NCBI GenBank assembly: GCA_951813565.1
Contig: OX638351.1
Coordinates: forward strand, 4,256,001 to 4,320,000
Direction: 5' to 3'
Source: an uncultured Poribacteria bacterium
Lineage (GTDB): Bacteria > Poribacteria > WGA-4E > WGA-3G
Length of the DNA stretch: 64,000 nt
Below are positions 15,567-61,780 of this stretch, piece after piece. A model generated the notes under the pieces. The model saw only the letters and a program-made list of their open reading frames with translations, had not been told where the DNA came from and did not search any database. Both the position numbers and the translations under genes were made by a program. The first letter of the stretch is position 1, and every line of letters starts with the position of its first letter.

Positions 15567-16284
15567 GTAGGGCGGGGTCCCGGGGAATGCCAAAAGGCAT
15601 TCATACCGTTGATTTGGTGCCCCATAGGCGTCAATTTAAGAAATAACGCGTTTGTAGTTGCGCAATTCATTGCCAAATCAACGCCAAATACGCTTATGGT
15701 ATTTGGCGCCTCGGACATTCTGTAGGAGCGACCTCCTGGTCGCGACCCGACAAATACCATACGGGAATGCCATAAAGGCATTCATACCGTTGATTTGGCG
15801 TTGATTCGAGGTCGTGCCTACAAGAAGAAAATGTGAATCATTGGCCATGCAACAAGCAATCAGGCACTAAATTGACAGTTATGGGCTGGGTCGCTGTGCC
15901 CCGCCCCATAGGTGTAAACTTAAGGATTTTAACCTCTGTTTTTCTGTTTCAGCCCGCCAAATGCGTTATGCACGTTTGGCGTTGATTTGGACATGGTAGT
16001 AGGCACGCGCCGCGTGCCGTCCACAAGTGAATAGATTACGGCGGACGGAGTATGCCTACTACTTTGCATTGCACATCTTTTCTTAAGTTGACACTATGTG
16101 TCTCCTGTGTTTAACCCAATAGGTGTAAACTTAAGGATACACCTTCTTGTGGGAGGGGTTTTCAACCCCGATTTACTTGGTTGAATCTCGAAAATCGGTC
16201 GGACAAGGTCTCCCTCCCACAAGAGAAAATCCAGCATTTTTTTCTTAAGTTTACACCTATGGGGTCGCTGTGCCCCGCCCCTAC
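15567..16284. repeat. mosaic of REP-like palindromes, three CATAGG...TTAAG MITE units and 34-bp micro-elements
   Basis: MITE units at 15623-15883, 15907-16098 and 16118-16261; micro-elements at 15582, 15674, 15763 and 15956. Confidence 0.85.
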
Positions 16285-16519
16285 AATAGGAGTTGTGCGG
16301 ATTTCTACAAAAACTTTACACACCCTAAAGAGGGTTTCCGTTTTGTGCGTTATGTCTTGATTTGGTAACATAAACAGTGAACCAATTTCTTATATCGACT
16401 CCCGTTTGAAAAAATTGTCCAAAGTTTAGTAACATTTAAAAATCTTGTAAAATAACAATTAATGTAATATAGTTAAACATTATGGGAAATTGTGGAAAAG
16501 AGGTATTCATAACGTTACC

Positions 16520-16549
16520 TTGACATTCTTTAGTTTAATGTGTTACTCT
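16520..16549 (+). promoter_or_regulatory. candidate sigma70 promoter for disA
   Basis: TTGACA-18 bp-TACTCT with extended -10 TG. Confidence 0.45.
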
Positions 16550-16566
16550 TATTTTAACAGTGGGAG

Positions 16567-17682
16567 GTGAGAGTCGTGCTCAAAATTCCAACCGAAAATC
16601 AGAAGGAACGTGAACTCGTCGCCACCTTGAAACTACTATCCCCGGGCACTTCTCTACGAGAAGGTATTGATTATATTATCCAAGCCAAGACGGGGGGATT
16701 GATAGTTGTTGGGGATACGCCCGAAATCCTAAATTTGACGGAAAGTGGCTTTCGGATTAATTGCCCGTATACACCGACACGCCTATCCGAGTTAGCAAAA
16801 ATGGATGGTGCTATTATCCTTTCATCGGATATGAAACGGATAGTGCGTGCTAATGTCACTTTAATGTCAAACACATCTGTTGTCTCAAATGAAACTGGAT
16901 TACGCCATCGTGCAGCAGAAAAATTTGCTAAGGAAACTGGGCATATATTAATTGCTATTTCAAGGCGTCGAAATACACTTACACTATACACGAGAAATCA
17001 GCGTTATATTTTTCGTGAACGTCCAGTTCTGATCTCCGGTGCCAACCAAACCATGCTTGCACTAACCCAATACGTTAAAACCATGCAGCATGTTGTTGCC
17101 ACACTAAACTGGGCAGAACTAAACGGGACAGTAACTTTATCTAATGTAATTATGGCTATTCAAGTCTGTGAACGGGTTAGACGAACAGAACACGAATTAA
17201 ACCGATACCGGATCGAATTAGGCACAGAAGCACAATCCCTTCAACTCATCCCATCAGCATTATTAACAGAAATTGAAAGAGCTTTGCTCATCATTAAAGA
17301 TTATTATAGAGAGGAAGAAAGAGACGAATATCAAGCATTTGAACATATTCTTGGACTTAGCGCGACTGACTTAGCTGCAGAGAGTAGTATAAGTGAAGCA
17401 CTTGGCTATCCACGGGATTTTAACGACTATGTAGAAATATTAGCACCGCGCGGGTATCGAATGCTAAGCCAAATACCGCGTATTCCGATGAGTATAGTTG
17501 AAAATATCGTCCAAAACTTCAAAACGTTAGATGCAATCATCACATCAAACATTGGTGCGCTCCAAAACATTAAAGGTGTTGGAAAAACGCGCGCAACAGC
17601 AATTAAAGAGGCGCTTGTTCAAATGAAAACAGGAACATCACAACCGCAGGTTTTAGCATTACCTATTTTTGATTGGGATTAA
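16567..17682 (+). CDS. disA: DNA integrity scanning diadenylate cyclase DisA
   Basis: PGTSLREG, DGA and RHR catalytic motifs, PRGYR linker, C-terminal HhH (IKGVGKTRA). Confidence 0.92.
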   Translation: MRVVLKIPTENQKERELVATLKLLSPGTSLREGIDYIIQAKTGGLIVVGDTPEILNLTESGFRINCPYTPTRLSELAKMDGAIILSSDMKRIVRANVTLMSNTSVVSNETGLRHRAAEKFAKETGHILIAISRRRNTLTLYTRNQRYIFRERPVLISGANQTMLALTQYVKTMQHVVATLNWAELNGTVTLSNVIMAIQVCERVRRTEHELNRYRIELGTEAQSLQLIPSALLTEIERALLIIKDYYREEERDEYQAFEHILGLSATDLAAESSISEALGYPRDFNDYVEILAPRGYRMLSQIPRIPMSIVENIVQNFKTLDAIITSNIGALQNIKGVGKTRATAIKEALVQMKTGTSQPQVLALPIFDWD

Positions 17683-17786
17683 AAAGGGGAGTCTTAATTT
17701 TGAGGGCATAGAATATACCTGCGTGATTAACAACAGTAGACATAAATATCATTCAAATTTGAAATTTATAGGATAGGAGTTTAATT

Positions 17787-19130
17787 ATGAAACAATTTCA
17801 TGTTACTTTAGAGCGGAAAATGTTATTAAAACGTTATCAGTTATTCAGTAGGGTTCTTTTTTCTTGTTTGTTCATTTTTCCGATTTTTCTTGCCGCATGT
17901 GGCGCAAAACTCGGAACAATTCAACAGCAAGATGTTGACACACAACTAACCCAAGCAGAAAAGGCGATCAAATCAGCTCGTGAAGTAAATGCGCCTTCCC
18001 TTGCTTTTGAGGAGTTTGAGCAAGCAGAAACCTATCTCGAAAAAGCAAGAGAAGCATTGGACGAAAACAATGGGGTTGACGCACTTCGATTTGCTACCCA
18101 AACTATCACTCATGCGAAAATTGCCCAGCGAAAAGCAGTGCATAACACAAAAAATGCTGAATTAAACGCTAACATCTTAGAAAAAGATGCCCTCATTGTT
18201 GAACTTAGAAAAGATATTAATACGAAAAAAACTGAAATTACAGGCTTAGAAAATGGAATCCAGCAACTTCGTGAGAATGAAACGGGACTCCAACGAACTA
18301 TTCGCACACTTGAAAATGAAAAACGTGAGCTGGCGGATACTGGCAAAATCAGTGAGCGAAAAGCTACTGAGCTTAATGAGGTACTGAAATCGCTTCAAGC
18401 AAGAGTCGCGCGTTCTGAAACAGATGTCCATAATTACGGCTTGCAAGTGAAGGAACTCTCTCGGAAGCTTGAAGTTGCTGAAACGATGGCTAAATCGGCA
18501 AGTAAACAAAAACGCGCTGTAGTCGCTGAGGCTGAATCTCTCAGAAAACAGTTACGGGAACAAGCTAAGGTTTACACTGGTATGTTGGAAAAAGCCAAGA
18601 AGCAGAATATCGCAGCTGAACATCAGGAATATATGAAAAAGACAGCAGAGCAATCACGCGAATTCTCGAAACAACTGCCAAGTAACAAATCCCCACGCAC
18701 CCGTCGGACATCGCTTTCTACTGCACAAATTAATGCTGGAAAAGCAGTGCTTAGTAAATGGGAAAAAGAATGGAATAGCAAAAATGTTGATACACATCTT
18801 GCGTTCTACATCCCAAATTTTACTGTCAAAAAAATTCTTGTTCAAGAAAGCAAAGAAAATGAGAGCATCATTGACCCCAGTCAAATTGCGGCTGCCTTTC
18901 GTGAGATGAACGCACAATCTTGGGGAAAAAAAGAGAGTTTTTCTGAAGTAGAACAAGAAAGTGTCATCGGAACTTATAGTTTCAGTCGATTAGTTACGCC
19001 GGCTCAAACAGAGGATGATACCGCTTTATACGATTACTGGACCAGAGAAGTATGGTGCCATCAGGTTCAAGGTGAATGGAAAATTTATCGAGAAACTTGG
19101 CAAATTTATGAAAATATTCCCGAACTGTAA
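17787..19130 (+). CDS. lipoprotein with DUF4398-like helical domain, long coiled coil and NTF2-like C-terminal domain
   Basis: Lipobox LAAC; heptad-rich middle; W..EW...N....L.FY ... WKIYRE C-terminus. Confidence 0.6.
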   Translation: MKQFHVTLERKMLLKRYQLFSRVLFSCLFIFPIFLAACGAKLGTIQQQDVDTQLTQAEKAIKSAREVNAPSLAFEEFEQAETYLEKAREALDENNGVDALRFATQTITHAKIAQRKAVHNTKNAELNANILEKDALIVELRKDINTKKTEITGLENGIQQLRENETGLQRTIRTLENEKRELADTGKISERKATELNEVLKSLQARVARSETDVHNYGLQVKELSRKLEVAETMAKSASKQKRAVVAEAESLRKQLREQAKVYTGMLEKAKKQNIAAEHQEYMKKTAEQSREFSKQLPSNKSPRTRRTSLSTAQINAGKAVLSKWEKEWNSKNVDTHLAFYIPNFTVKKILVQESKENESIIDPSQIAAAFREMNAQSWGKKESFSEVEQESVIGTYSFSRLVTPAQTEDDTALYDYWTREVWCHQVQGEWKIYRETWQIYENIPEL

Positions 19131-19136
19131 GGAGGT

Positions 19137-20564
19137 TTGCAGATGAACAATTTTCCAAACGCTACACAGAACACTTCTAAAATTACTTTGCCAGATTCCC
19201 TTAAATGGGGAGGAATCGTAGTTTTAATTGCTATTTTCGCTATAGGAGGCTTCCTACTCACGCGTTCCAGTGAAACGCCAGCCGGATTTTTAGCGAAATG
19301 GAAGAATGCGATTGAATCCGGGAATCTTACAGATTACCGTGCTCTCTGGTCAAAAAATGATAGAGATCGGCTTAATTCAGATTATGAGGACACCGCTCAG
19401 CTTTTTGAAGATGAAATCCAAATTGAAGTCAATATTGCTAATGCTGTAGATAAAACACGTAAGAATCCTCAAAATCCAAATTACTTGAGCATTGAAGAAA
19501 TCCCTATCCTTGTGCATACCGATGGCGAGCCAGTGATTCAATTAAGAACGCTTACTATTGCCAAAACAGGACTCATTCGACAACGCTGGAAACTCATTAG
19601 AGATGAAGTCGTAAATCAAGAATTTGGTTCTGATCTCTCCGCATTTGAGGTGGTAAGTTCGGAAATTTCAGTTGCAAACGGAACGCAATCTAACAGTCCT
19701 GTTGCCCCGTTAGTTATAGAGTGGAAAAAAGCGCTTGAGTCTCAAGATGAAAAGAAGTACATCTCACTTTGGGATAAATCATCTCGACAAAAGCGAAAAA
19801 CTAATTTTCAACTTGCTCGCCTGCAGCTCTCCCAAGAGGCGGATGTTGATTTAAGCCAAGCGACCTATTCCCTTGTTGCACACTCAAAAACTCGACACGT
19901 AGTTGACAATATAAGTGTTACAATCCGTAGCGGTAGCACAATCATAGAAACACAATCCCGTACGCTAACGATTGAGAAGAAAGGTTTCTTTTTTAGACGC
20001 TGGAAGCTTATTAATGATGCGGTCGGAGGCGATGGTATTACAGATCAGCCTATTTCCCAACACGACCAACCGGATGTTGACGCTATGTCAGAAGAAGCCG
20101 CCTCAGGTATCTACAACGGTGATGCGCCAATTGATACACAACTCAAAGTAAGCCAGATTCTCGGTAAATGGCAGAGATCATGGGAAGAGAAAGACCTTGA
20201 TACCTATATGTCTATCTATGCCGAAAGAGCGCTCATCACCCGCGTCACCGTGCGAGATGGAAAGGAGACACCTATCTATTTGAGAAAAAAACAACTCCGA
20301 CAGAAAATGAAGCAGTTAAATCAACGTTACTCCGATATTCAGGTTAAGATATCTAATCTGGAGATTAACGGGGATCGGGCTGTCGCTGACACTACATTTT
20401 TGCAAGAATTCAAGGGGACACCTGCATCGGGCAGTCGTCCAGCATATTCCGATTTTGGTACCAAAAAATTGATCCTAATGATTGATCCTGCTGATGGATA
20501 TTGGAAAATATATGCCGAAACGTGGAGTCGTTACGAGGATGTTCCTAAATATCCCCAAAACTAA
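19137..20564 (+). CDS. membrane-anchored protein with three NTF2-like repeats
   Basis: One N-terminal TM; three units WKNAIE..RWKLIRD, WKKALE..RWKLIND and WQRSWE..YWKIYAE. Confidence 0.6.
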   Translation: MQMNNFPNATQNTSKITLPDSLKWGGIVVLIAIFAIGGFLLTRSSETPAGFLAKWKNAIESGNLTDYRALWSKNDRDRLNSDYEDTAQLFEDEIQIEVNIANAVDKTRKNPQNPNYLSIEEIPILVHTDGEPVIQLRTLTIAKTGLIRQRWKLIRDEVVNQEFGSDLSAFEVVSSEISVANGTQSNSPVAPLVIEWKKALESQDEKKYISLWDKSSRQKRKTNFQLARLQLSQEADVDLSQATYSLVAHSKTRHVVDNISVTIRSGSTIIETQSRTLTIEKKGFFFRRWKLINDAVGGDGITDQPISQHDQPDVDAMSEEAASGIYNGDAPIDTQLKVSQILGKWQRSWEEKDLDTYMSIYAERALITRVTVRDGKETPIYLRKKQLRQKMKQLNQRYSDIQVKISNLEINGDRAVADTTFLQEFKGTPASGSRPAYSDFGTKKLILMIDPADGYWKIYAETWSRYEDVPKYPQN

Positions 20565-20641
20565 AATCTATTTAACAATGAATTAGATGGTAGAAACGGA
20601 TATTTGCTATTCCCGGTAGGAACAATGTCTAATCAACACAA

Positions 20642-21055
20642 ATGCACACTGAATACCGAACCAAACGAAAGATAGAATTTGCCGATACGGATATGGCAGG
20701 TATCGTCCATTTTTCGCGATTTTTTATCTTCATGGAGGCTGCAGAACACGAATTTCTACGCAGTTTAGGAACCACTGTCGCCACTGAATGGAATGGAGAT
20801 AAAATTGGGTGGCCTCGACTTACCGCCTCCTGTGAATATCTTAGCCCACTACGATTTGAAGATGAAGTGGACATCCGACTTTGGGTGTCTAAAAAAGGGA
20901 CAAAGTCACTCACATATCAATTTCACTTTACCCACGAAGGTAAAGATATTGCGCGCGGACAACTCACGACAGTCTGTTGTATTACAAATCCGGGTGAAAA
21001 AATACGCGCCATTCCCATCCCTGAGTTCATCATTTCACAAATTGTCGTACAGTAA
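20642..21055 (+). CDS. acyl-CoA thioesterase (4HBT hot-dog family)
   Basis: FADTDMAGIVHFSRF motif. Confidence 0.9.
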   Translation: MHTEYRTKRKIEFADTDMAGIVHFSRFFIFMEAAEHEFLRSLGTTVATEWNGDKIGWPRLTASCEYLSPLRFEDEVDIRLWVSKKGTKSLTYQFHFTHEGKDIARGQLTTVCCITNPGEKIRAIPIPEFIISQIVVQ

Positions 21056-21116
21056 TATTCGTCCGTGTCTTGTGCTGTAGTGCCAAAATCCCATCTAAAA
21101 TCGCCTTCCAAAAAAT

Positions 21117-21830
21117 ATGAAAGAAACTACAGATAAAACACATCAGCTTAAAATTTCAAACCTGTCTAAAGACTTTGGAGACATTCAGGTTTTACGAGAT
21201 ATTTCATTCAGCTTCAGTTCAGGAACGTCAGTGGCTATTACTGGTCCTTCCGGGTCTGGCAAAAGCACACTCTTGCACATCATTGGCACCTTAGAAAATC
21301 CTTCAGACGGACAAGTTGAGATTAACGGCACTGACCCCTTTAAACTTTCTGAACCCGAACTCGCACGCTATCGGAATGCTGTAATTGGGTTTGTGTTCCA
21401 AGATCATCATCTCCTTCCACAATATTCTGTGCTTGAAAATGTACTCATCCCAACACTTGCCTTTGAACAAGAGGCTGATGCGCCACAACTCGCGCAAGAA
21501 ATCATCAGACGTGTAGGGCTGACTGATCGCATTTCACATCGTCCTGCGGAACTTTCTGGTGGTGAACGTCAAAGAGTTGCAATCGCCCGCGCCCTCATCA
21601 ACAAACCGAGTATTCTTCTCTGCGATGAACCAACTGGCAACCTTGATACAACCACTGCTGGGACCATATCGAATCTGCTTTTTGAACTGCACCGTGTAGA
21701 ACGAAACATCTTAATCGTTGTAACGCACAACCTTGAATTTGCTGGCAGGTTTGAAAACCGTCTTAAACTTACTGATGGTGTGTGCACTTTAGAAACGGTG
21801 AGTGGTGAACAATCTGAAAAAAATGATTGA
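21117..21830 (+). CDS. ABC transporter ATP-binding protein (LolD/MacB-like)
   Basis: GPSGSGKS, LSGGERQR, DEPTGNLD. Confidence 0.93.
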   Translation: MKETTDKTHQLKISNLSKDFGDIQVLRDISFSFSSGTSVAITGPSGSGKSTLLHIIGTLENPSDGQVEINGTDPFKLSEPELARYRNAVIGFVFQDHHLLPQYSVLENVLIPTLAFEQEADAPQLAQEIIRRVGLTDRISHRPAELSGGERQRVAIARALINKPSILLCDEPTGNLDTTTAGTISNLLFELHRVERNILIVVTHNLEFAGRFENRLKLTDGVCTLETVSGEQSEKND

Positions 21831-21835
21831 TATGA

Positions 21836-24800
21836 GTGGTGTTCACAATTATGCGTACATTTTGGAGAACTGCAAAACATTATTGGCAAATTCATCTTAT
21901 TGTTGCACTTTGCACTGCTGTAGCAACAGGTGTGCTTGCTGGTGCGTTGATTGTAGGAGATTCCATGCGGGGTAGCCTGCGCGATATTACGTTGGAACGC
22001 CTCGGCACAATTCAGCACACGCTCATCGCCGACCATTTTTTTCAACCAGAGATATTAAATCGACAGAATATGGTGCCAGCAATTCTGCTGAACGGAACCG
22101 TTGTTGCATCAGAAACCGATGCTCGTGCTTCAAAGGTTAATATCTACGGTATCAAAAATAACTTCTTCAGTTTGTGGAAACAGGACGCTGTTCCCAATTT
22201 AAGTGACGCATCCGATAAACCATTTGCAGATATTGTTATTAACGAGGCACTTCAAAAGGAATTGAATGTACAGGTCGGGGATGCAATAATAGTTAATATT
22301 CCACAAACATCTGAAATCCATCCAGAATTCCTACTCGGTAAGCGAGACGCCGCCGATGTCATCCAAAAACTACGTGTAGTTGTCAGTGATGTTATTCCTA
22401 CTGAGAATGTGGGGAGATTTAGTCTCCATGCACATCAAAGCCTTCCGCTGAATGCATACATCTCACTCCCTATTTTGCAAAAAGCACTTGCGCAATCCGG
22501 TAAAGTAAACGCACTGTTTTCTGCTGATGCTGATCCAATTACATCAGACACTTTAACTTTGACATTAGGGGAACTTGGCTTATACATTACTGAACACGAA
22601 AATCACATTGACCTACAAAGTTGGCACTACCTTCTTGAGCCAGTGTTATCGGAAGTAGCATTATTGGTCGCATCAGAAAATAGCATTCCAGCACTTCCTA
22701 CCTTAACCTATCTTGCAAACACAATGTCTGTTATTAACGAATCCGAAAATGAAACTGCAGATGAATCCGCAAATGTGCCGTATTCCTCAATTCTTGCGCT
22801 TCCTATTGACAATATAGGGTTTACAGCACTTCTGCGTGAATTCATGACTGAAGATGAACAGGCTGCTTATGCTCAGGCACAACAGCAAGAACGCAAAAGA
22901 CGCGCATCAAAGAAAAGAGAAGAAATCAAAAATGTTGAAATAGAAAGCAGCAGAATAGAAAAAGAGATCACTGAACTTAAAAATACAAAACGGGCACTCA
23001 GAAGTACCCCAGAATATAAACAAAAATTGGCTGAAGTAGAAAGTGCACTATCAGAAGTGAAAAAGAGAATTGACACACTCAATCTCCCAATTGAACCTTC
23101 TGAAATTTACCTCAATACGTGGGCAGCGGACAACCTCGGAGCGAAAGTCGGGAATAAAATTAACATTACCTATTTTCGCGTCAATCCTCAAGAAAACTAC
23201 ATTTCAGAAACAGCTCAGTTTCTATTAAAAGGTATCGTGCCTATTGAAGGTATTGCTGCAGACACAAACTTAATTCCTGATTTTCCCGGTATTCACGACA
23301 AAGCCGATATATCCGAATGGGAACCGCCTTTTCCTTTTGACAGCAGCCTTATTCGTGACAATGACAAAGAATATTGGGATGAGTACAAAGCAACTCCGAA
23401 AGCGTTTGTTCCTATAGATATCGGCAAACGTCTTTGGCAAAATCGATTTGGTGACCTTACCACTATTCGGATGGGAACTGCACCAGGACAGGATATAGGC
23501 GCAACGAGGACACTTTTTGAAAACGAATTCCTCAAAATGATTAAGCCGGAACAGATTGGATTCCAATTCATACCTCTCCAAGAAGAGGGACTTAAAGCAT
23601 CTTCTGGTTCCACAGATTTTGGAATGCTATTTAGCAGTCTAAGTTTTTTTATTATATTAGCTGCTGCAACGCTTGTTAGCACAATCTTCGCCATTGGTGT
23701 TTCGCAACGGTCGCGTGAAATCGGTATACTACAGGCTGTTGGCTACCCACTGGCCAAAATCCGACGTCGTTTTCTTTTTGAGGGAATCTTTATTGCAAGT
23801 ATCGGAAGCCTATTGGGATGTCTACTTGCTATTGGATATGCACGGTTGATGATATTTGGCTTGCAAACGTGGTGGTTACCGGCTATCGGCACCCCTTTTA
23901 TCGATCTCCATATAAGCAGATGGAGTTTACTTATCGGCATCCTTGTGACACTTGCAGTTGTTACATTTTTCATCCGCCATGTTATCAAAAGACTTGGCAA
24001 GGCACCAACTGCAGCACTCCTTTCAGGGGAGACCGATTTTGATGAGACATCCCGCAAATATAAACCGCAAACTGTCAAAGTGTCAAGAATTGAGACAACA
24101 AGAATTTCAATATTTATCATTGGTCTCTTTTTTGGCACCATGGATAGGGGAAAACTCTTTACGGGAGATTGGAGTGGAATTATTATTGTTATCTTACTGG
24201 CAGCTTGCGGACTATTTGGTATCCGTTTAGCACGTCGAAGAGACGATGGAACAAACCCTAACCTTACCCTCAAAAACATAAAAATAAGTACTATTTTCTT
24301 CTGTATTGGACTCGTTGTTGGTGTATTAGTAGGTTATTTTCCCTTTGGTAGAAGCATTTCTGACGCAGTTATTACATTTTTTGAGCATCCAGTAGTAAAA
24401 TTTTTAATACTTACAATTACAATCCTTTCCTTGGGTTGGTTAATTTTTGACAGATGGTTAGGTTCACAGAGGGTCCCGAAACGTCTAAGCCGTCTGAGGT
24501 TTGGACTTAAAAATGCAGCATGGCAACCGCAAAATAGCCAAGGTTCTATTATAATCATGAGTTTAGCGTGCTGTATTATTGTTGCTGTCGGGGCAAACCG
24601 TCATGATGCTGCACCAGAGACTGAATATGCTTTTGTTGCCGAATCTTCTCTACCTTTACATCACAGTCTAAATACACCTGATGGAAGATATGAACTCGGA
24701 TTTAATGAAAAAGCTTCTGAATTACTGTCTACATCAGAAGTTTTTCCGTTTCGCGTCTTACCGGGGGAAGATGTTAGTTGTCTTAATCTCTACCAACCCA

Positions 24801-25597
24801 AAAAGCCGCAGATTTTAGGGGCATCAGATGCTATGCTAAACGAGAAGCCATGGCAAAGTCTAAAATTGGATAACGATCAAGCAAGGAAAATACACGCTAT
24901 CGGTGATGAGAAGTCGTTGCGTTGGATTCTTCATCATGATCCAAAGGAAGATTTTCTTATCCAAGATGAGTTTGGAAAATCGTTATTGTTGGAGCTTGAA
25001 ACGGTGGAAAACAGTCTTTTTCAGAGTCAATTGATTATCTCCGAAACCGATTTCACTAAATACTTTCCGAGTCAAAGCGGGTATCAATTTTTTCTTATCA
25101 AAACACCGCCTGAACTGCGAAAAGAAACATTGCAGACACTTGAGAAAAGTTTGGAGGACTATGGCTTTGACGTGACGTCAGCATCAGAACGGTTAGTAAG
25201 CTATCGTGCTGTTGAAAACACCTATATCTCCACTTTCCAAAGTCTTGGAGGGTTAGGCGTACTACTTGGCACTTTCGGTTTAGCACTGGTACTATTTAGA
25301 AACATCATTGAACGTCGGGGGGAATTAGCAACTTTGCGCGCCTTCGGTTTCCAACGGCAGCTGCTTTCCAGAATGTTGCTCCTTGAAAGCTGCTTCCTTC
25401 TAACTATTGGTATGCTTATCGGGATTGCAGCTGGACTTATAGCCGTTCTCGGTTCACAAGGACATTTGCCATCATTCCCATGGATTTCTCTTGCGATTAC
25501 CTTGTTATTTATCTTTGGGTTTGGTATAATTGCAAATAGTATTGCTGTTGCTGTGGCACTCCGAAGCCCGTTGTTGTTAACCTTGAAAACAGAATAG
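21836..25597 (+). CDS. large FtsX-like ABC transporter permease
   Basis: 1253 aa with two FtsX-type units (QRSREIGILQAVG; ERRGELATLRAFG). Confidence 0.88.
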   Translation: MVFTIMRTFWRTAKHYWQIHLIVALCTAVATGVLAGALIVGDSMRGSLRDITLERLGTIQHTLIADHFFQPEILNRQNMVPAILLNGTVVASETDARASKVNIYGIKNNFFSLWKQDAVPNLSDASDKPFADIVINEALQKELNVQVGDAIIVNIPQTSEIHPEFLLGKRDAADVIQKLRVVVSDVIPTENVGRFSLHAHQSLPLNAYISLPILQKALAQSGKVNALFSADADPITSDTLTLTLGELGLYITEHENHIDLQSWHYLLEPVLSEVALLVASENSIPALPTLTYLANTMSVINESENETADESANVPYSSILALPIDNIGFTALLREFMTEDEQAAYAQAQQQERKRRASKKREEIKNVEIESSRIEKEITELKNTKRALRSTPEYKQKLAEVESALSEVKKRIDTLNLPIEPSEIYLNTWAADNLGAKVGNKINITYFRVNPQENYISETAQFLLKGIVPIEGIAADTNLIPDFPGIHDKADISEWEPPFPFDSSLIRDNDKEYWDEYKATPKAFVPIDIGKRLWQNRFGDLTTIRMGTAPGQDIGATRTLFENEFLKMIKPEQIGFQFIPLQEEGLKASSGSTDFGMLFSSLSFFIILAAATLVSTIFAIGVSQRSREIGILQAVGYPLAKIRRRFLFEGIFIASIGSLLGCLLAIGYARLMIFGLQTWWLPAIGTPFIDLHISRWSLLIGILVTLAVVTFFIRHVIKRLGKAPTAALLSGETDFDETSRKYKPQTVKVSRIETTRISIFIIGLFFGTMDRGKLFTGDWSGIIIVILLAACGLFGIRLARRRDDGTNPNLTLKNIKISTIFFCIGLVVGVLVGYFPFGRSISDAVITFFEHPVVKFLILTITILSLGWLIFDRWLGSQRVPKRLSRLRFGLKNAAWQPQNSQGSIIIMSLACCIIVAVGANRHDAAPETEYAFVAESSLPLHHSLNTPDGRYELGFNEKASELLSTSEVFPFRVLPGEDVSCLNLYQPKKPQILGASDAMLNEKPWQSLKLDNDQARKIHAIGDEKSLRWILHHDPKEDFLIQDEFGKSLLLELETVENSLFQSQLIISETDFTKYFPSQSGYQFFLIKTPPELRKETLQTLEKSLEDYGFDVTSASERLVSYRAVENTYISTFQSLGGLGVLLGTFGLALVLFRNIIERRGELATLRAFGFQRQLLSRMLLLESCFLLTIGMLIGIAAGLIAVLGSQGHLPSFPWISLAITLLFIFGFGIIANSIAVAVALRSPLLLTLKTE

Positions 25598-25617
25598 CCT
25601 GTGAAGAACACACAACC

Positions 25618-25931
25618 CATAGGTGTCAACTTAAGGATATATCCTCTTGTGGGAGTGAATCAACGCAGCATGCCGGACGGGGAATGCCAACAGGCATTCA
25701 TACCCGCTGAATACCAAAAGCGTATTCAGCGTTGATTTGGCCAAATGCCTAAATGGCATTTGTAGCGTTGATTTCTTGATTTGGCGCATGCTGCGTTGAT
25801 TTGGATGAATACCACAGGTGTATTCATCGTTGATTTGGATTTAATAGGTTGAGCTTCACAATATCGGGCGGACCAGGTCTCCCTCCCACAAGAGACAATC
25901 TGGTAATTATGTGCTTAAGTTGACACCTATG
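25618..25931. mobile_element. IS231/IS186-like MITE filled with nested micro-elements
   Basis: 18-bp perfect inverted repeat cataggtgtcaacttaag / cttaagttgacacctatg. Confidence 0.8.
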
Positions 25932-25974
25932 GTCAGTAAAGAACACAATCCGAAACGTGGTACAAGAAGTGAGT

Positions 25975-26565
25975 ATGATGCGTTCTGTTTGGACAATTCC
26001 CGCAATTTTTATATTCCTTTTCCCGCTTCTAACACAGGTGGGTTGTTCAAGTGACACGGAAAAGGCTACTGCTTCGGCCATGAATCACACAGAACAGGGG
26101 TGGCATGCTTACAGATCAGGTGACTATACACAGGCGCTGCTCAGTTTTGAACGGGCTCTCAATATTGATCCGGAATTCGCAGATGCACATAATGGTGTTG
26201 GATGGAGTCATCTGAGTCTTTCGCTCACGCTACCATTAGTACAAGAAGCCTTTCAAAATGCTGTGCGCTACGATGCGTCTAACGCTGACGCATGGGTTGG
26301 CTTGGCAAATGTGCTCTACTTAAGGTACAAAGATAGTTCTGATTTCAACGCCGCTATCCGAGCAATTGATAATGCACTACAAGCAGACGCACAATACCTC
26401 TACCGACATGATTATCAGTCCAACGCTGAACTGTTTGCGCTGAAAGCTGCATGTTATTTCTATCTCGGTCAGAATCAATTAGCAAAACAAGAGGTTGACA
26501 AAGCACTAAAAATTGATGCTGAAAACAGAGCAGTCATTGTGCTACAAAATATGTTGAAGGAATAA
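25975..26565 (+). CDS. TPR-repeat lipoprotein
   Basis: Signal peptide with VGC; TPR motifs (FERALNIDPEFADAH). Confidence 0.85.
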   Translation: MMRSVWTIPAIFIFLFPLLTQVGCSSDTEKATASAMNHTEQGWHAYRSGDYTQALLSFERALNIDPEFADAHNGVGWSHLSLSLTLPLVQEAFQNAVRYDASNADAWVGLANVLYLRYKDSSDFNAAIRAIDNALQADAQYLYRHDYQSNAELFALKAACYFYLGQNQLAKQEVDKALKIDAENRAVIVLQNMLKE

Positions 26566-37861: not shown

Positions 37862-38812
37862 ATGCTAAAAGCAGGATTTATTGGTGCTGGAGGACGCAGC
37901 CAAGGTGCACATTATCCGAGTGTCAACCGTCTTGAAGAAGATGTTGAAATGTCCGCAGCGTGCGAACTTGACGAAGGCAAACTCGCGCAGGTCGCGCAAA
38001 AATATGAGTTTCCGCATACGTTCACAGACCATCATAAGATGTTGGATACAATGGATTTAGACGTTGTTTATTGTGTGATGAACGAGAAATGGATTTTGCA
38101 ACCAGCGTTAGACTGTCTGAATGCGGGAAAACATATATTTATTGAAAAACCGCCGGGCGCAACGAGCGATGAGACACAACAATTATTGGAAGCAGCCGTC
38201 GCCAACGATGTCTACTGTATGGTCGGCTTTCAACGGAGATTTGCCGCTGTCACACGCGAAGCGATGCGCCGTGTCGCAGAAAAAGGCCCCGTCTCATTAG
38301 CAGTCACAACATTTAACAAGCAGATGATCGGTGGTAATAGAGAATTTACCACAACGCTTTGGAATGATGTCTGTCACGTTGTTGATTTGCTCCGTTATAT
38401 GGCAGGTGGTGAACCAGTTGAAGTTACAGCACATCGCGACATTTTTGGTGCTGAACAACGCAATTTTTACACCGCTTATGTCCGTTTTGATAATAATGTC
38501 ACAGGTGTTGTTTTCGGTAATCGTGCATCAGGTGGACGTGTGCTGCGCTCTGAGTTGCATGGTGTCGGTATCGGATGTTACATGAAAATCCCCGAAGAAA
38601 TCGAAATTTATGAGAACAACAACAGGCATGTAATGGGAGGTTGGGAAGTTGATGGTGTTGACCAGCGCGATTCGCCAAGTTACGAAGGTGTGCTTACAAT
38701 GCACCAACACTTCGTTGACTGCGTCCAGAACAAAAAAGTTCCGCTTACCGATCTCCGTGATGTCATTCATTCTATTCACCTTGTTGACCAAATAGAGGGT
38801 CCCTTACCTTAG
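37862..38812 (+). CDS. Gfo/Idh/MocA family oxidoreductase
   Basis: GFIGAGG, AGKHIFIEKP, GFQRRF, H..DL. Confidence 0.9.
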   Translation: MLKAGFIGAGGRSQGAHYPSVNRLEEDVEMSAACELDEGKLAQVAQKYEFPHTFTDHHKMLDTMDLDVVYCVMNEKWILQPALDCLNAGKHIFIEKPPGATSDETQQLLEAAVANDVYCMVGFQRRFAAVTREAMRRVAEKGPVSLAVTTFNKQMIGGNREFTTTLWNDVCHVVDLLRYMAGGEPVEVTAHRDIFGAEQRNFYTAYVRFDNNVTGVVFGNRASGGRVLRSELHGVGIGCYMKIPEEIEIYENNNRHVMGGWEVDGVDQRDSPSYEGVLTMHQHFVDCVQNKKVPLTDLRDVIHSIHLVDQIEGPLP

Positions 38813-39793: not shown

Positions 39794-40652
39794 GTAGGAG
39801 GGGTTTTAAACCCCGATAAACGCTTGGAGTTCGTAGTCGTGCAATTCATGGCACCTCTTACATTTCTTGTAGGAGCGCTTTGTAAGCGCGATGCATAGTA
39901 GCCAGCGCGCTCCGCGTGCTGGCCGTCGCGCCTTTTGTGGAAGCACTTTAGTAAGAAGCGCGCGATATATTGTTGCTGAAAACGGTTCACACATCAGTAT
40001 AAATTCGTTTTCAATAATACAGAGTGATAAAGTTTGTAGGTTGGGTTGGGTAGAGTTTGCGAAACCCATAAATCAACGCTATGAATGCCTTTATGGCATT
40101 CAGCCAAATCAACGCAGCATGCGCGTATGGCATGCTGCGGGCGTCAATTTAAGGATTTATTTCAGGTTTCACACATTTTAACCCAAACAACACCGGAACC
40201 CAATTGTAGGGGCGGGTCTCCGGTGAATGCCAAAAGGCATTCATACCCGGTGAATGACTAAAGACGAATGCGCTTGGTAGAATACGCTTTTGGTATTCTA
40301 CATGATTCGCCATGGTTCATACCGTTGATTTCTTGATTTGGTGCCCGCCAGTTGTTTGAATACATCAGCAATGGCGGGGCACAGAGACCCCACCAAATGC
40401 CAAAAAGCGCATTTGGCGTTGATTTGGCCCTACAAGGTGTGCCAGGATTTATCCCCTAAATTGACACCTATGGGGGTAGAGTTTGCGAAACCCAACCTAC
40501 TTATAACTAATGTAAGAGGCGCAATGAATTGCGCGACTACAAACGCTGATATTCTTAAAATCCGCGAAATCTGTGTAATCCGTATCATCTGTGATTCAGA
40601 CAACAAAATCCAACACAAAGAGGTTGACGGCACACGGAGTGTGCCTACTACT
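39794..40652. repeat. mosaic of REP-like palindromes, an IS231-like MITE (40067-40472) and micro-elements
   Basis: 19-bp direct repeat at 40048-40066 / 40474-40492; GTTGATTTG elements at 40070, 40105, 40222-40340 and 40392. Confidence 0.85.
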
Positions 40653-52584: not shown

Positions 52585-53428
52585 TACCAAATTAACGGGA
52601 TTTGTTTCATTTTTCTGGATAGACAGCGCGCTTACATGAGGATTAAAAATATATTTCGGTAATTTCTAACGATAGACATCTTGTTTTATCTTTTTCTTGT
52701 GTGAGGTTCATTATCTTGTTGTCTGAATCACGGAAGGCACGGAGTTCACGGAAGTCCTTTCTATTCATTTATGTTTCTTCTAATCAGAAATAGTAATGAA
52801 ACGGAAATGCTTCTGCGTCTTCCGCGTTCTCTGCGCCTTCCGTGATTCAGACAGAAAAGGGATCAGATTACCGAATTAATAACTTAATCTTCATCAAAGC
52901 GCGCCTACAAGTTGAAGCAAGTTAATTGAGGGGTGTGCATAAATAATTCCGATGTTATAGTAAAACCTATAATTACTGGGACACTTCTGTAGCGCAACCT
53001 TTTAGTTTGCGTCTCATAAGGCACAAACTAAAAGGTTGCGCTACAACTTCTATTGTCTATTATCTTTCCAAGACAAGTTTATCAAAGTGTCCCAATAATT
53101 TCAAAGTTCACTATAAATATGTGCTTAAAGGTAGTCCGCACACGCCGTGGGTTTCCGTCCACAAGTTCAAAGAGGCGCAGCATGCCACACGGGGAATGCC
53201 ATAAGGCATTCGGACCGTTGATTTGGCGCATGCTGCGTTGATTTGGCAATGAATTGCGCGACTACAAACGGCATTTCTATAAATCAAGCGGCGCCTGGCG
53301 TCTGTCCCTGTCTGTGTTGATGCGCCAAATATTTATGCACACTCCTCAGTTAATTTGGTATAATTAGTTTGCAGTTATCGGTTAAAGCAATCAACACCGA
53401 ATACCATAAGCGGATTCGGTGTTGATTT
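52584..53428. mobile_element. nested stack of MITE-like elements, REP doublets and micro-elements
   Basis: Inverted-repeat pairs 52584/53361, 52636/52894, 52721/52852, 52927/53348, 52955/53116 and 52989/53044. Confidence 0.85.
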
Positions 53429-58099: not shown

Positions 58100-58330
58100 T
58101 TCTTGTCTCCAAAGACTTATAAAAAGATTAAACTTTCATGCCTTGTAATTTAGACAGAAAAAAGCAGATAAGGTTCGGACAATTAGAAAAAGGTGAGAAT
58201 ACTATCTCCTTCCTTATTTGCCAAGAGTTTAATGATGTTATTTGGAACACAATTATGCTATTTTTGACGTTTTAATTAGAAAAAAGGTTTATTGTAAAGT
58301 GAATGTGATTAAATTGTGTATAAAACTTAT

Positions 58331-58360
58331 TTGACAAAATTCAACGAAAACTGGTATAAT
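58331..58360 (+). promoter_or_regulatory. consensus sigma70 promoter
   Basis: TTGACA-18 bp-TATAAT with extended -10 TG. Confidence 0.7.
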
Positions 58361-58402
58361 GTGATATAGTGATAATTTGTTTAACTTAAATCGGGGAGCA
58401 GG

Positions 58403-59311
58403 ATGAATACTATTGGTCAGAGTTTTGGTGGAAACTGGACAGAGCAAAAGTTGGATTGTGTGCGGAAATATCTGAAAGCTTACACAACGATTATGAATAA
58501 GCAGCCATTTAAATTTGCTTATATAGATGCCTTTGCAGGAACTGGCTATCGTGAACTCATGCTTGATGAAGATGAAAGTGAAACATTATTTCCAGAACTT
58601 GACTCTCAAGAGGTAATCAACTTTCGGCAAGGTTCGGCACGTAATGCTCTGGAAGCAGAACCGCCGTTTGAGAAATATATTTTTATAGAAGAAGATAAGG
58701 AAAATTACTCCGAACTGGAAAAACTCACCGAAGAATTCTCTAAAAAAAATATTGAGTGTAGACGTACGGATGCAAATGAATATTTGACTGATGTTTGTAA
58801 TAAGAATTGGGAACAACATCGGGCGTTAGTATTTCTCGATCCATTTGGTATGCAGGTAGAATGGAAGACAATAAAATTAATTGCCGACACACAGGCTATT
58901 GATTTATGGTTACTTTTCCCAATTGGCACCGTCAACAGGTTGCTAAAAAGGAATAGTGATATTCGTCAGTCTATACGGGAAAAACTAAACCAATTTTTGG
59001 GTGAAGAAGGTTGGTATAAGGTGTTCTACAAACTGGCTTATGAAAATTCACTATTTGGTGAAGTTGAGCGATGGGAAAAAGTTGGTAATATATTTACAGA
59101 AATTGAACAATACTTCATGAAGCGACTACAAGGAATTTTTACTGGTGTAGCAACTAATCCACTTTCTCTACGCAATTCGAAAAATGTTCCATTGTACCTG
59201 TTGTGTTTTGCAGCTGGGAATCCAAAAGGTGCCCCAATTGCAGTTAAAATTGCAGAAGACATCCTTTTAAAAGAGTTGTGCCAAGGATCCTCATTACAAC
59301 AGTTAGATTAG
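58403..59311 (+). CDS. tcmP: three-Cys-motif partner protein (SAM-dependent methyltransferase-like)
   Basis: WTEQKL..YL, YIDAFAGTG, FLDPFG. Confidence 0.85.
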   Translation: MNTIGQSFGGNWTEQKLDCVRKYLKAYTTIMNKQPFKFAYIDAFAGTGYRELMLDEDESETLFPELDSQEVINFRQGSARNALEAEPPFEKYIFIEEDKENYSELEKLTEEFSKKNIECRRTDANEYLTDVCNKNWEQHRALVFLDPFGMQVEWKTIKLIADTQAIDLWLLFPIGTVNRLLKRNSDIRQSIREKLNQFLGEEGWYKVFYKLAYENSLFGEVERWEKVGNIFTEIEQYFMKRLQGIFTGVATNPLSLRNSKNVPLYLLCFAAGNPKGAPIAVKIAEDILLKELCQGSSLQQLD

Positions 59312-59332
59312 AATTTCCATAAGGAGCAATAA

Positions 59333-60073
59333 ATGGCAACCTTATCTTCAAAAATCGAATGGACTGAATCTACTTGGAACCCTGTGCGCGGCTGTACTCG
59401 TGTATCTGAAGGGTGTAGGTTTTGTTACGCTGAACGCATTGCAGCACGGTTTTCTGGTAAAGGCTTGGCTTACGAAGGTTTTGCAAAAAACACTAAAGCT
59501 GGACCACAATGGACACATAAAGTTGACCCTATTCGCGCTTTACTTAATGAACCATTAAAATGGAAAAAACCCCGCCGAATTTTTGTTAACTCTATGAGTG
59601 ATCTGTTCCATGAAGAGATCAAATTGGATTATATTCAAGAAGTTTTTTCTGTGATGGAAGAGGCGAGTTGGCATAAATTCCAAGTTTTGACAAAACGAGC
59701 ATGGCGGCTTTTGGAATATAGTCCGAAGTTGCCGTGGCCTTCGAACGTTTGGATGGGGGTTAGCGTTGAGGATAACCGCGTGATGGATCGGATTGACGAT
59801 TTACGTCAAACGGGTGCGAAAATTAAATTTCTTTCGCTTGAACCACTTATTGGTCCTCTCCCGCATTTGGATTTGAGTGGTATAGATTGGGTTATCGTGG
59901 GTGGAGAGTCTGGTCCCGGTGCCCGCGAAATGAAGGAGGAATGGGTTGTTGACATCAAAGACCAGTGTGAAAAAGAAAATGTGTTATTTTTCTTTAAACA
60001 GTGGGGTGGCACGCGCAAATCAAAAACGGGTAGAGAGTTGGATGGACAAACTTATGACGAAATGCCAGGATAA
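59333..60073 (+). CDS. DUF5131 / phage Gp37-Gp68 family radical-SAM-like protein
   Basis: IEWT..TWNP..GC...SEGC..CYA, FVNSMSDLFH, WVIVGGESG, FFKQWGG. Confidence 0.92.
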   Translation: MATLSSKIEWTESTWNPVRGCTRVSEGCRFCYAERIAARFSGKGLAYEGFAKNTKAGPQWTHKVDPIRALLNEPLKWKKPRRIFVNSMSDLFHEEIKLDYIQEVFSVMEEASWHKFQVLTKRAWRLLEYSPKLPWPSNVWMGVSVEDNRVMDRIDDLRQTGAKIKFLSLEPLIGPLPHLDLSGIDWVIVGGESGPGAREMKEEWVVDIKDQCEKENVLFFFKQWGGTRKSKTGRELDGQTYDEMPG

Positions 60074-60078
60074 GGAAT

Positions 60079-61380
60079 TTATTCAGTACGCAATGCCTCA
60101 ATAGGTGAAAGTGAAGACGCTTTTATTGCTGGATATAACCCAAAAGAGATACCGATTAACGCTGAGAACGATATTGAAATCAAAACCCATTCTGTTGAAA
60201 CAACCGAGGGCCATTCAGGCACAATTTTGGCGATTTTAACAGCGAGAAGTGCCATTCCCTGCCCAGCAAAGACGCCCAGACCAATTCCTATCAGTCCTCC
60301 CAAACCACACATCACAACTGCTTCCATTAGGAATTGAATAAGAATGTCAAATCGTTTTGCGCCCAGAGCCTTCCGCAGTCCTATTTCACGCGTCCGTTCG
60401 CTGACAGCAACCAGCATCATGTTCATAATACCGATACCACCGACAAGCAGCGAAAAACCAGCAATACTACCCAACGCTATCTTAATCACTCTGCTGATTT
60501 TCTCCAACTGCGCCATACCTTCACGCATATCAAAGATTCTGATGAAATCATCTTGGTTCCTGTGCCGCTTGCGGATGACTGCTTTTACTTCTTCTATTGC
60601 CTTCGGAACATCTTCAACAGTGTTTGCATAAACGACAATATCCTGTATCCGATCATCGCCAGTAAAACGTTCTTGCGTGGTTGAAAACGGCATAAAGACA
60701 AGACCGTCGTAACTCCAACCAAATCGGAGACTTCTGCCTCTTGGTGTCATTGTTCCTACAACCGTAAAACGTTCGGTTGATCGCTTGCGGTCCCTACGGC
60801 CGTATCGGTCATAACGTCCGTCACCTTTTGCGATTTTTATTTCCTGGCCGAGCGGAGATTTATCACCGAATAAGTCAGTTGCAATCTCATCTCCAAGTAC
60901 ACAGACAGTCGCAGCATTTTCCACATCTTCATCAGAAATAAATCGTCCCTCTTGAATTTTCCAGTCCATTGAAGTATGATAGGTAGCATCTACACCATTA
61001 TATCCAGCACGGGTTTGCGTGCCTCCTGCAGCTTCAATTAACGCACCTCTCCATTCTGGAATTCTTGGGGTCACTGCCTTCACGGACGGACATTCAGCCT
61101 CAATTGCCAACACATCGTCGTATTTCATGTACTCGTTACTACGGATTCTAACCCATTGCGATCCTACCCGTTTATACCATGTGCGATAGATAGTAAACTG
61201 GTTTGCCCCTCCCAGTTTTTGAGCATCACGCAAAACAATCTCCTTCGCACCATCACCGATTGAAATCATTGCAAGCACAGACGCAACGCCGATGATAATC
61301 CCAAGCATTGTTAGCAATGATCGCATCTTATTAGAGCGAATGGCGGTGATCCCGACAAATAGTGCCTCTATCAATTGCAT
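60079..61380 (-). CDS. MacB-like ABC permease
   Basis: Close paralogue of 56798-58099. Confidence 0.92.
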   Translation of the reverse strand: MQLIEALFVGITAIRSNKMRSLLTMLGIIIGVASVLAMISIGDGAKEIVLRDAQKLGGANQFTIYRTWYKRVGSQWVRIRSNEYMKYDDVLAIEAECPSVKAVTPRIPEWRGALIEAAGGTQTRAGYNGVDATYHTSMDWKIQEGRFISDEDVENAATVCVLGDEIATDLFGDKSPLGQEIKIAKGDGRYDRYGRRDRKRSTERFTVVGTMTPRGRSLRFGWSYDGLVFMPFSTTQERFTGDDRIQDIVVYANTVEDVPKAIEEVKAVIRKRHRNQDDFIRIFDMREGMAQLEKISRVIKIALGSIAGFSLLVGGIGIMNMMLVAVSERTREIGLRKALGAKRFDILIQFLMEAVVMCGLGGLIGIGLGVFAGQGMALLAVKIAKIVPEWPSVVSTEWVLISISFSALIGISFGLYPAIKASSLSPIEALRTE

Positions 61381-61577
61381 TTTATTCTCCGAAAATTTTA
61401 AGATATTGACAATATATAAAAATTTTAGACACCTGATGGCAAGCGTGCTTTGTAAACATAACGATCTACAATTGCAATTAATGTGTTGAAATTCAATCTT
61501 GTTTTCAACTTTAGACGTGATTATAAAAATAGGTTTATTGGGATAGGTTCAAGGTGTGGAATATATTTGAATTCTTT

Positions 61578-61780
61578 TATATTGAAATTCATAATTATTT
61601 GGACATTCTGTTCTTATGCGGATTTCAAACACACGGTAAATGTCCGAGGCGACAAGTCATGGTGAATACCATACGCGTATTCGCCCAAGTGCGCTTGGCG
61701 TTGATTTGGCAATGAATTGCGCGACTACAAACGCCGCTAACCTTAAGAAAATGTCCAGTTATTTTTCGATTTTACTATAA
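61578..61780. repeat. MITE-like element containing a REP interrupted by a micro-element
   Basis: gaggc[61651-61708]gcaatgaattgcgcgactac; right end ttttactataa. Confidence 0.65.

Follow-up and report, generated by a model that had tools for sequence, protein, structure and literature searches.

Short hairpin units with a constant tail as candidate mobile DNA elements of a Candidatus Poribacteria sponge-symbiont genus

A 64,000-nt stretch of DNA from an uncultured Poribacteria bacterium (assembly GCA_951813565.1, contig OX638351.1, positions 4,256,001 to 4,320,000 of the forward strand; hereafter the window) carries many copies of a small unit that consists of a hairpin followed by a constant single-stranded tail, GTTGATTTG. 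The locus raises the question of whether so short a unit is a mobile element in its own right and, if it is, what moves it. An earlier reading made from the letters alone (the sequence-only reading) had proposed a structure-defined, site-specific minimal element mobilized in trans by an unknown enzyme. We find that the units are best explained as a family of non-coding, 34-35-nt mobile DNA elements belonging to one genus of Candidatus Poribacteria sponge symbionts. As for how they move, we infer a non-autonomous hairpin element that is transferred as single-stranded DNA and acted on in trans, probably by a nuclease of the HUH type, a reading to which we give a probability of about 45%.

The window has 14 occurrences of the tail GTTGATTTG where 1.48 are expected, and none of 100 shuffled sequences reaches 14. 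Twelve of these occurrences fall at the sites first listed, and the remaining two, at 38381 and 47434, lie inside open reading frames, have no hairpin and are chance 9-mers. With the variant-tail copies at 15800, 25767, 40069, 40324 and 53421, the window holds about 19 unit-like copies, which bears out the original count of at least 15. The genome, a single contig of 5.43 Mb, contains 649 occurrences of GTTGATTTG and 562 of GTTGATTTGG, compared with 32 for the reversed control of the latter. A perfect hairpin stands directly 5' of the tail in 412 of the 649 cases; the reversed motif has one in 9 of 77 cases, and random positions in 252 of 2000. Because about 125 of the bare 9-mers are expected by chance (a figure scaled from the window shuffles), the genome contains roughly 520 real structured copies; the core CGTTGATTTGG occurs 519 times. 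Only 20 of these 519 lie in open frames of at least 200 codons, although such frames cover 78.7% of the genome.

The units fall into two classes that share the tail. Class A has a 9-bp stem and a 7-8-nt loop (variants include CATACGC, CAAACGC, CACACGC and CGGACGC), giving a total length of 34-35 nt. Its most frequent sub-families have the arms GCAGCATGC/GCATGCTGC (67 copies), GACAAATGC/GCATTTGGC (44 copies, with a fixed A.G mismatch), GCCAAATGC/GCATTTGGC (37 copies), GATGAATGC/GCATTCAGC (21 copies) and GCTGAATAC/GTATTCAGC (13 copies). Class B, with 135 simple copies detected in the genome, is 35 nt long and consists of GGG, a 7-bp stem GAATGCC/GGCATTC with a 4-nt loop, a 5-nt spacer (ATACC or GGACC) and the tail. 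At this length the units are too short to code for anything, so that a mover would act in trans, as the sequence-only reading had held.

The stems that it listed, GCAGCATGC/GCATGCTGC, GCTGAATAC/GTATTCAGC, GATGAATAC/GTATTCATC and GCCAAATAC/GTATTTGGC, are present as written and paired. Across 42 distinct class A arm pairs, 94.7% of positions are paired, compared with 78.3% (maximum 82.5%) when the 3' arms are shuffled, and stem positions 3, 4, 5 and 8 each show two or three types of Watson-Crick pair. Since the stems covary in this way, what is conserved in class A is the hairpin and not its sequence, and the description of the unit as structure-defined holds. Folded as single-stranded DNA, units form a hairpin with a free tail at -6.5 to -10.7 kcal/mol (z -2.7 to -4.3), and a nested 69-mer at 53177 folds as a hairpin within a loop at -18.4 kcal/mol (z -4.1). 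Some copies have a long tail, GTTGATTTCTTGATTTG, which is an 8-nt duplication of the tail and is polymorphic between strains at one locus (L225).

Covariation suits an RNA fold as well as a DNA fold, and it would therefore sit equally well with a route through RNA, in which the unit would be transcribed and its RNA returned to DNA by reverse transcription or reverse splicing. Such a route is the one proposed for the small dispersed repeats (SDRs) of cyanobacteria, whose authors are said to have suggested RNA intermediates. We nevertheless consider it very unlikely here. The units show no orientation bias relative to the flanking genes (82 loci co-directional, 74 opposite) and carry no poly-A or other marks of a retro-element, and an Rfam search of the unit gave nothing relevant, only one stray match to a miRNA family far under threshold.

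The precision of insertion was examined by an exact-excision test, which asks whether deletion of a unit recreates an 18-mer (9 + 9 nt) that is intact elsewhere in the genome. The test set comprised 388 simple units identified by iterative peeling, 364 directly and 24 exposed after removal of an inner unit. Exact deletion restored an intact 18-mer for 255 of the 388. Moving the deletion frame one base rightward restored 247, and moving a frame of the same length by 3-5 nt restored 58-61, which represent in-phase deletions within tandem arrays; a change of one base in the deleted length restored 0-11. The ends of the unit are thus fixed with a latitude of one base, and the target shows no duplication apart from a single ambiguous G. 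A two-base duplication was ruled out, as the unit's second base shows no correlation with the second one following the tail. The 24 units exposed by peeling compare with 2-26 under shifted deletions (20-26 for all shifts except +6) and are not used as evidence.

The insertion sites share a simple rule. Among 99 distinct target contexts (6 + 6 nt), position -1 is C in 90% and position +1 is G in 91%, with C also at -2 in 61% and at -3 in 53%, so that the C^G bias and the site specificity expected from the window extend to the genome. In metagenomes, 61 of 136 matches have a simple hairpin, and 47 of these 61 show the C^G...G arrangement while 9 follow a tail; this count is only partly independent, many of the loci coming from near-identical strains.

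Class A units lie after CCC or GGC. Their landing sites include two families of repetitive extragenic palindromes (REPs), one of which is a GTAG-type REP that we call REP-A (...gaggcgcaatgaattgcgcgactacaaac). Of 285 REP-A copies, 174 are intact, 80 filled and 31 degenerate; every filling is at gaggc^g and in a single orientation, and the fillings are of at least six kinds, comprising several sub-families of class A as well as class B and forms that are nested or composite. Other class A sites are the stem of a second REP (gagacccc^gccctac; 8 filled, 9 intact), the position just 5' of a GTAG, and the 3' foot of a small GGGGTT..AACCCC hairpin within a host repeat that resembles a MITE (miniature inverted-repeat transposable element). 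The original proposal that removal of a unit restores an intact motif without duplication thus stands for gaggc^gcaatg and gagacccc^gccctac, and more weakly for its third example, gtctcc^gtgcccgcc, which is filled three times and intact once (a sister form is filled 12 times and never intact).

Class B units lie in loops, either that of the second REP or class A loops of the form C-N3-C^GC. The units found in class A loops number 47; all 47 belong to class B and are oriented like the outer unit, with none inverted; the C^G step is symmetric, yet insertion into loops is one-directional. The loops reconstructed by removing the inner unit match common intact loops, for example atgccacac^gcgcatgct (13 filled, 14 intact). 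The claim that the element inserts into itself therefore holds in the form of class B within class A loops; no other self-insertion was detected.

Hairpins used as integration sites recall the attC sites of integrons, and a tyrosine recombinase acting on folded hairpins could take the tail, with an occasional inverted copy of it, as its core sites. Thirteen full palindromes of the form AATCAAC-hairpin-GTTGATT occur in the genome, and the MITE-like host repeat carries GAATCAAC...GTTGATTC around unit arrays, as such a reading might predict. An inverted tail copy is present on the left side of only 3 of the 388 units, however, empty targets such as gaggcgcaatg have no tail-like core, and the units are far shorter than attC sites, which makes this explanation extremely improbable.

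The distribution of the family was followed with the 12-mer GCGTTGATTTGG. It is present in all 40 genomes of the genus, in 1 to 357 copies (minimum counts for many of them, which are fragmented metagenome-assembled genomes, MAGs), and at background level in 65 genomes of the sister genus (0-4 copies; controls 0-2) and in three other families of the order. A further genus, represented by a single genome, has 11 copies. Viral contigs gave no match to the unit. The family is thus confined to one genus. With regard to the host, the closest disA loci by DisA protein are from Candidatus Poribacteria MAGs (70-78% identity), and the eight sequencing runs in which the window is present are either sponge metagenomes or carry the label of one organism, none being recorded as RNA. 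A cyanobacterial host was ruled out by these relatives and by the absence of any Photo_RC (photosystem reaction centre) match in the genome.

Differences between related genomes are visible at two levels. The spacer between a radical-SAM gene and disA is 1284 nt long here and contains four tails; in the five nearest genomes of the same genus with a measurable spacer, whose flanking genes are 83-93% identical, it is about 360 nt long and contains no unit. The intergenic mosaic responsible, of about 950 nt (window about 15499-16449), has grown at one point and is absent as a block from these five species. The radical-SAM gene that borders it is lysine-2,3-aminomutase-like. At the level of strains, 123 metagenome loci showed the arm-plus-tail pattern, and comparison was made for 58 contig pieces (29.4 kb, 95 tails) that align end to end at one place in the genome with at most 1.5% mismatch. 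Three whole-element differences were found among these 58 pieces, all from short-read contigs. At ttcaacccc^g this genome has a 34-nt class A unit that the contig lacks (L258; no mismatch in 877 nt). In the other two cases the contig has the extra element: a 34-nt unit of a different sub-family that stands between two units (L298; 2 mismatches in 687 nt), and a double class B composite of 71 nt in the class A loop catac^gc (L268; 4 mismatches in 506 nt). The same comparison revealed slippage products of 27 nt (a tail-less hairpin) and 8 nt (the tail duplication), an unrelated 43-nt indel and, at two other loci, shorter indels of 6-13 nt. Together with the exact-excision result, these apparent filled and empty alleles, of the kind that the sequence-only reading had asked for, support its claim of mobility; they hint that gain and loss between strains may be ongoing. 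Logan contigs over window 15300-26100 (four runs from four studies) break at the repeats in such a way that alleles and paralogues are inseparable; contigs of two runs skip 34 nt from 25705 to 25740 with sides of just 24-28 nt, as either an allele or a paralogue.

Many copies have evidently travelled within larger repeats. Five copies, 98% identical, exist of the 134-nt stretch in which the unit at 15582 lies, and two fillings account for about 25 of the 45 filled REP-A copies listed (our own tally). Among neighbouring units within 120 nt, 130 are direct and 26 inverted. The centre of the palindromic MITE-like repeat is occupied by arrays in which as many as nine identical units, or alternating blocks of two units, follow one another; these arrays are tandem duplications. 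A large share of the copies thus comes from tandem duplication and from riding in bigger repeats, not from separate insertions. Independent insertions are far fewer than 520 but, because there are 99 distinct contexts, still many. The MITE-like repeat has ends cccataggtgtcaacttaagg... and arms cttgtgggag-tgaatcaac / gttgattcg-ctcccacaag, and is found in the window at 25617-25900, 15622-15645, 15900-15925 and 40139-40160. Its arm ends resemble the unit's tail, and for this reason the tail may derive from it.

Taken further, hitch-hiking could mean that the unit is not independently mobile at present, being a module of mosaics like the bacterial interspersed mosaic elements (BIMEs) that arose in a few old events and has since been carried by REPs, MITE-like repeats and tandem arrays. 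The recurrence of composites as blocks, such as the 134-nt stretch and the two dominant REP-A fillings, is in keeping with this view, as are the absence of the whole 950-nt mosaic as a block from the five nearest species and the constancy of mosaic pieces in four runs from four studies. We consider it quite unlikely all the same: different sub-families fill the same REP-A position, the target contexts number 99, single units differ between strains whose flanks of 500-880 nt have 0-4 mismatches, and copy number ranges from 1 to 357 within one genus.

Another explanation would dispense with a dedicated enzyme altogether. Template switching at stalled hairpins, followed by gene conversion, slippage and unequal crossing-over, would be expected at targets that are hairpin-rich repeats and hairpin loops; it would account for the growth in tandem, the predominance of direct neighbours and the arrays of up to nine identical units; slippage products, namely the 8-nt tail duplication and the 27-nt tail-less hairpin indel, are indeed seen, and no enzyme has been identified. 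Template switching usually gives variable end points and longer microhomology. Here the boundaries are identical to the base at 99 distinct sites, the homology at the junction is one base with the second base uncorrelated, and the orientation is fixed, and we regard this origin as unlikely.

We return to a single-stranded hairpin element handled by an HUH-type nuclease. A unit would move as folded single-stranded DNA, cut at both ends and rejoined by a trans-acting HUH/Y1-type nuclease similar to those of IS200/IS605 elements or to the REP-associated tyrosine transposases (RAYTs), and the nuclease would recognize the hairpin together with the adjacent constant 9-10 nt. In published accounts, HUH enzymes bind subterminal hairpins and use a short sequence 5' of the hairpin foot; IS200/IS605 elements have hairpin-defined ends, are cut a few bases from the hairpin, insert at a short 5' target motif without target duplication and pass through a single-stranded intermediate; and RAYTs cut single-stranded DNA near a hairpin after C (C^T or C^A), the attacking 3' base having to be C. 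We favour this reading because a hairpin with a short constant sequence, seamless joints and a minimal 5' motif are hallmarks of both IS200/IS605 and REP/RAYT systems, and the unit likewise sits 3' of a short, specific motif and leaves no target-site duplication. On the complementary strand, moreover, the constant flank is CAAATCAAC and the unit has a 9-nt leader ending in CAAC followed by the hairpin, which is the layout of a REP, and both junctions would then fall 3' of a C, as in RAYT cuts. The single orientation of loop insertions fits a folded single-stranded target. The genome also encodes ten Y1-family genes by match to Y1_Tnp: five IS605-type tnpA, two IS200-like (one broken) and three RAYT-like (one broken), of which the two intact RAYTs score over the NCBIfam cut-off for REP-associated tyrosine transposases.

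Several observations weigh against this reading, the first being the lack of any enzyme linked to the element. In this genome the RAYT and IS200-like genes each have hairpin repeats of their own on their flanks, not the unit. None of 30 RAYT loci in the genus is flanked by units; a tail-like motif is absent from 20 of them, occurs once in nine and twice in one, in the last case far from the gene. RAYT family members are found in 64 of the 65 genomes of the unit-free sister genus, and the IS200-like Y1 gene of the L006 type in 46 of the 65; the IS200-like protein was not found at E <= 1e-15 in four high-copy genomes of the genus (G002, G048, G049, G012). The unit has one hairpin, where IS200/IS605 derivatives need a left and a right end. 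It contains no GTAG, and this is absent from the constant flank on the other strand as well. Counts of seven G.T against four A.C mismatches, from a detector that favoured wobbles over mismatches, do not discriminate between the strands as the folding one. A lagging-strand bias is not discernible in a genome whose GC skew is not V-shaped, and an IS605 control shows no bias either. Finally, the strain differences come from short-read contigs that cross repeats, where a mis-assembled path through a paralogous junction is possible.

The candidates among the resident genes were considered individually. RAYTs were rejected as the mover for want of any association with the unit, either on their flanks or at the level of the genus: homologues occur in 29 of 40 genus genomes, G055 (206 unit copies) has weak partial matches only, and the closed genomes G023 (42 copies) and G003 (31 copies) have no match at E <= 1e-10. 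The IS200-like Y1 was set aside on the distribution given above. The possibility that the unit is an end of the resident IS605-like element was ruled out, since the hairpin ends of that element, which has four full copies and about 20 tnpB-only copies in the genome at 90-96% identity, are unrelated. None of 333 repeated intervals of at least 500 nt resembles a coding element that ends in the tail, and the few tails near the ends of such intervals sit in repeat mosaics; the sequence-only reading's suggestion of a transposase gene bounded by the same hairpin and tail accordingly found no counterpart. Pfam Y2_Tnp (IS91-type) has no match in the genome, a search in which control genomes were equally silent. 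The part of the claim that left the enzyme unnamed therefore stands: no resident Y1 protein, RAYT or IS605 element is tied to the unit.

If these gene families are set aside, the unit could be the substrate of an undescribed single-strand DNA integration system, for which the hairpin and the 9-nt tail would suffice in cis and which would follow two target rules: class A would use C^G after CCC or GGC, and class B exposed hairpin loops only and a single orientation. The structure of the DNA would then tell the mover where to insert, and that mover would be either a co-opted host nuclease or an enzyme outside the known families of RAYTs, IS200/IS605 transposases and recombinases. We hold this unlikely. 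If it were true, the 34-nt unit would rank with the smallest known transposition substrates of autonomous appearance, as the first found outside cyanobacteria.

The unit shares with REP and REPIN-RAYT systems a short intergenic hairpin with a constant foot sequence, hundreds of copies, lineage specificity and a lack of coding capacity, and RAYTs and GTAG-type REPs coexist with it in the same genome. It differs in that its constant part is 9-10 nt ending in CAAC, the genome's GTAG REPs being separate families; in that units form direct tandems and not inverted doublets; and in base-precise insertion into REPs and into other units, which the REP accounts consulted do not describe. Termini of the Helitron and IS91 type have a hairpin about 10 nt before the 3' end and insert at a fixed dinucleotide without duplication, like the unit, but such elements are kilobases long and the unit has no coding partner. 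Nested palindromic elements of organelle and giant-virus genomes, such as double-hairpin elements, place hairpin modules in hairpin loops, including their own; they differ from the unit in hosts and sequences, and the unit has two classes with separate target rules and a constant tail. Unlike MITEs, the unit lacks terminal inverted repeats and target-site duplication, and its arrays, with a period of 34-35 nt and no spacers, are not CRISPR arrays.

The behaviour of the unit is closest to that of the cyanobacterial SDRs, as an analogy drawn from partial descriptions. SDR1-8 of heterocyst-forming cyanobacteria, the subject of work by Elhai et al. in 2008, reportedly keep their hairpins by compensatory change, are nested in their own copies and insert precisely at a fixed point of another short repeat, with the mover unknown. 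Compared by description only, both are tiny, hairpin-forming and self-nesting and occupy a fixed point of another short repeat. According to citing papers, SDR5 is 21 nt long, sits between the third and fourth bases of the repeat HIP1 and is restricted to Nostocaceae; the present unit is found in Poribacteria, is 34-35 nt against 21-27 nt, has a constant 3' tail and targets C^G instead of HIP1. The resemblance to SDRs noted in the sequence-only reading is thus apt as an analogy, with a sponge symbiont and not a cyanobacterium as the host. A literature search for the unit motifs found no cyanobacterial repeat paper and no account of such repeats in Poribacteria. The best-ranked papers of searches on Poribacteria repeats, with supplements and subscription papers outside their scope, likewise contain no description of such elements.

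The window shows most of these arrangements. At its left, a class B unit (15582-15616, + strand; GGG + GAATGCC/GGCATTC, 4-nt loop, ATACC, GTTGATTTG) lies in the loop of a GTAG-type REP (gtagggcggggtccc^gtgcccc), and a class A unit (GCCAAATAC/GTATTTGGC) occupies the fixed site of a REP-A copy at 15674-15707 on the - strand. A degenerate outer class A unit follows at 15749-15808 (+), with the 5' arm GACAAATAC, the tail-like GTTGATTCG and no 3' arm; its loop CATAC^GC holds a class B unit at 15763-15797 (+). A solitary class A unit (GCCAAATGC/ACGTTTGGC, one imperfect pair) at 15956-15989 (+) is flanked by tttcagccc^ and ^gacatggtag.

The second cluster begins with an outer class A unit at 25665-25803 (+; GCAGCATGC/GCATGCTGC), whose loop CGGAC^GC holds a 105-nt nest (25679-25783) made up of a class B hairpin, at 25706-25739 a class A unit, and at 25740-25783 a long-tailed unit. 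It is followed in tandem, after the preceding tail, by a class A unit (GATGAATAC/GTATTCATC) at 25804-25837 (+), at the centre of the MITE-like palindromic repeat. On the - strand, a class B-like variant (tail GTTGATTTA, spacer ATAGC) at 40069-40104 adjoins a class A unit, GCAGCATGC-CATACGC-GCATGCTGC plus tail, at 40105-40138. A 119-nt composite of a class B hairpin, a multi-hairpin insert and a long tail fills the REP loop gtctcc^gtgcccgcc at 40222-40340 (+) and recurs many times in the genome, and a class A unit (ACCAAATGC/GCATTTGGC, 8-nt loop) sits at gagacccc^gccctac within a GTAG REP stem at 40392-40426 (+).

An intact REP-A copy, the unfilled target, is present at 40515-40546 (+). Filled sites are seen at 53177-53245 (+), where a class A unit in REP-A (gaggc^gcaatg) carries in its loop CACAC^GC a nested class B unit (53191-53225), an arrangement unchanged in a near-identical strain (L236), and at 61651-61708 (+), where a 58-nt composite with a terminal tail, of which the genome has at least ten near-identical copies, occupies the same REP-A site. 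A full-palindrome variant, AATCAAC-ACCGAATAC-loop-GGATTCGGT-GTTGATT, one of the 13 in the genome, lies at 53389-53428 (+).

On the other strand REP-A reads GTAG TC GCGCAAT TC ATTGCGC, and its remaining window copies are at 15651-15673 + 15708-15719, 53246-53270 and 61709-61733. Among the copies inspected none adjoins a RAYT gene, and REP-A is therefore an orphan REP family. Another REP family, GTAGGAGCGACCTCCTGGTCGCGAC (window 15722-15748), flanks two RAYT-like genes (L009 and L010), one with an internal stop, and the third RAYT (L008) is flanked by GCTGGCGAGGTTTCCTAACCTCGCC; such loci, each a RAYT with its own REP, look like classical REPtrons in a Poribacteria genome. An IS605-like element occupies window 63137-64000 (tnpB, with tnpA just beyond the window) and has the right end ...CCCCTACCTTTAGGTAGTGGGTACCTATGAC. 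Cumulative GC skew is lowest at 0.49 Mb and highest at 5.05 Mb and spans a small range; without a clear two-replichore pattern, it does not locate the origin or the terminus.

Other small repeats differ between strains as well. A 43-nt stretch beside REP-A (window 53270-53312), which contains the palindrome gcggcgcctggcgtc, is missing in the near-identical strain at L236 and may be another small mobile hairpin module. A 377-nt MITE-like insert with a duplicated TATAAA-type target is present here and absent from near-identical contigs (L239), and a 166-nt MITE-like insert (L297) was seen only in the first-pass comparison. Both inserts lie beyond the window, in genome intervals 5106964-5107959 and 4390500-4390984, and represent ordinary cut-and-paste elements that are active within the same population.

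The spread of REP-like and SDR-like micro-repeats is an open question, and for most families the moving unit and its cut sites are unknown. The present family offers an unusually clean data set from a closed genome: the ends are precise to the base, sister sites, filled or empty, number in the hundreds, the two classes follow separate target rules, orientation is strict, units nest in loops, and there are hints of ongoing gain and loss between strains. The family thereby defines exact oligonucleotide substrates for biochemistry with the ten Y1-family proteins. The unit is among the smallest apparently mobile DNA elements, and its occurrence in Poribacteria indicates that self-nesting micro-elements are not a cyanobacterial oddity. 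For the uncultivated sponge symbiont itself, the units build intergenic mosaics on the kilobase scale, such as the one of about 950 nt at 15.5-16.4 kb of the window that sister species lack; in doing so they break short-read assemblies at these mosaics and shape the architecture of the genome.

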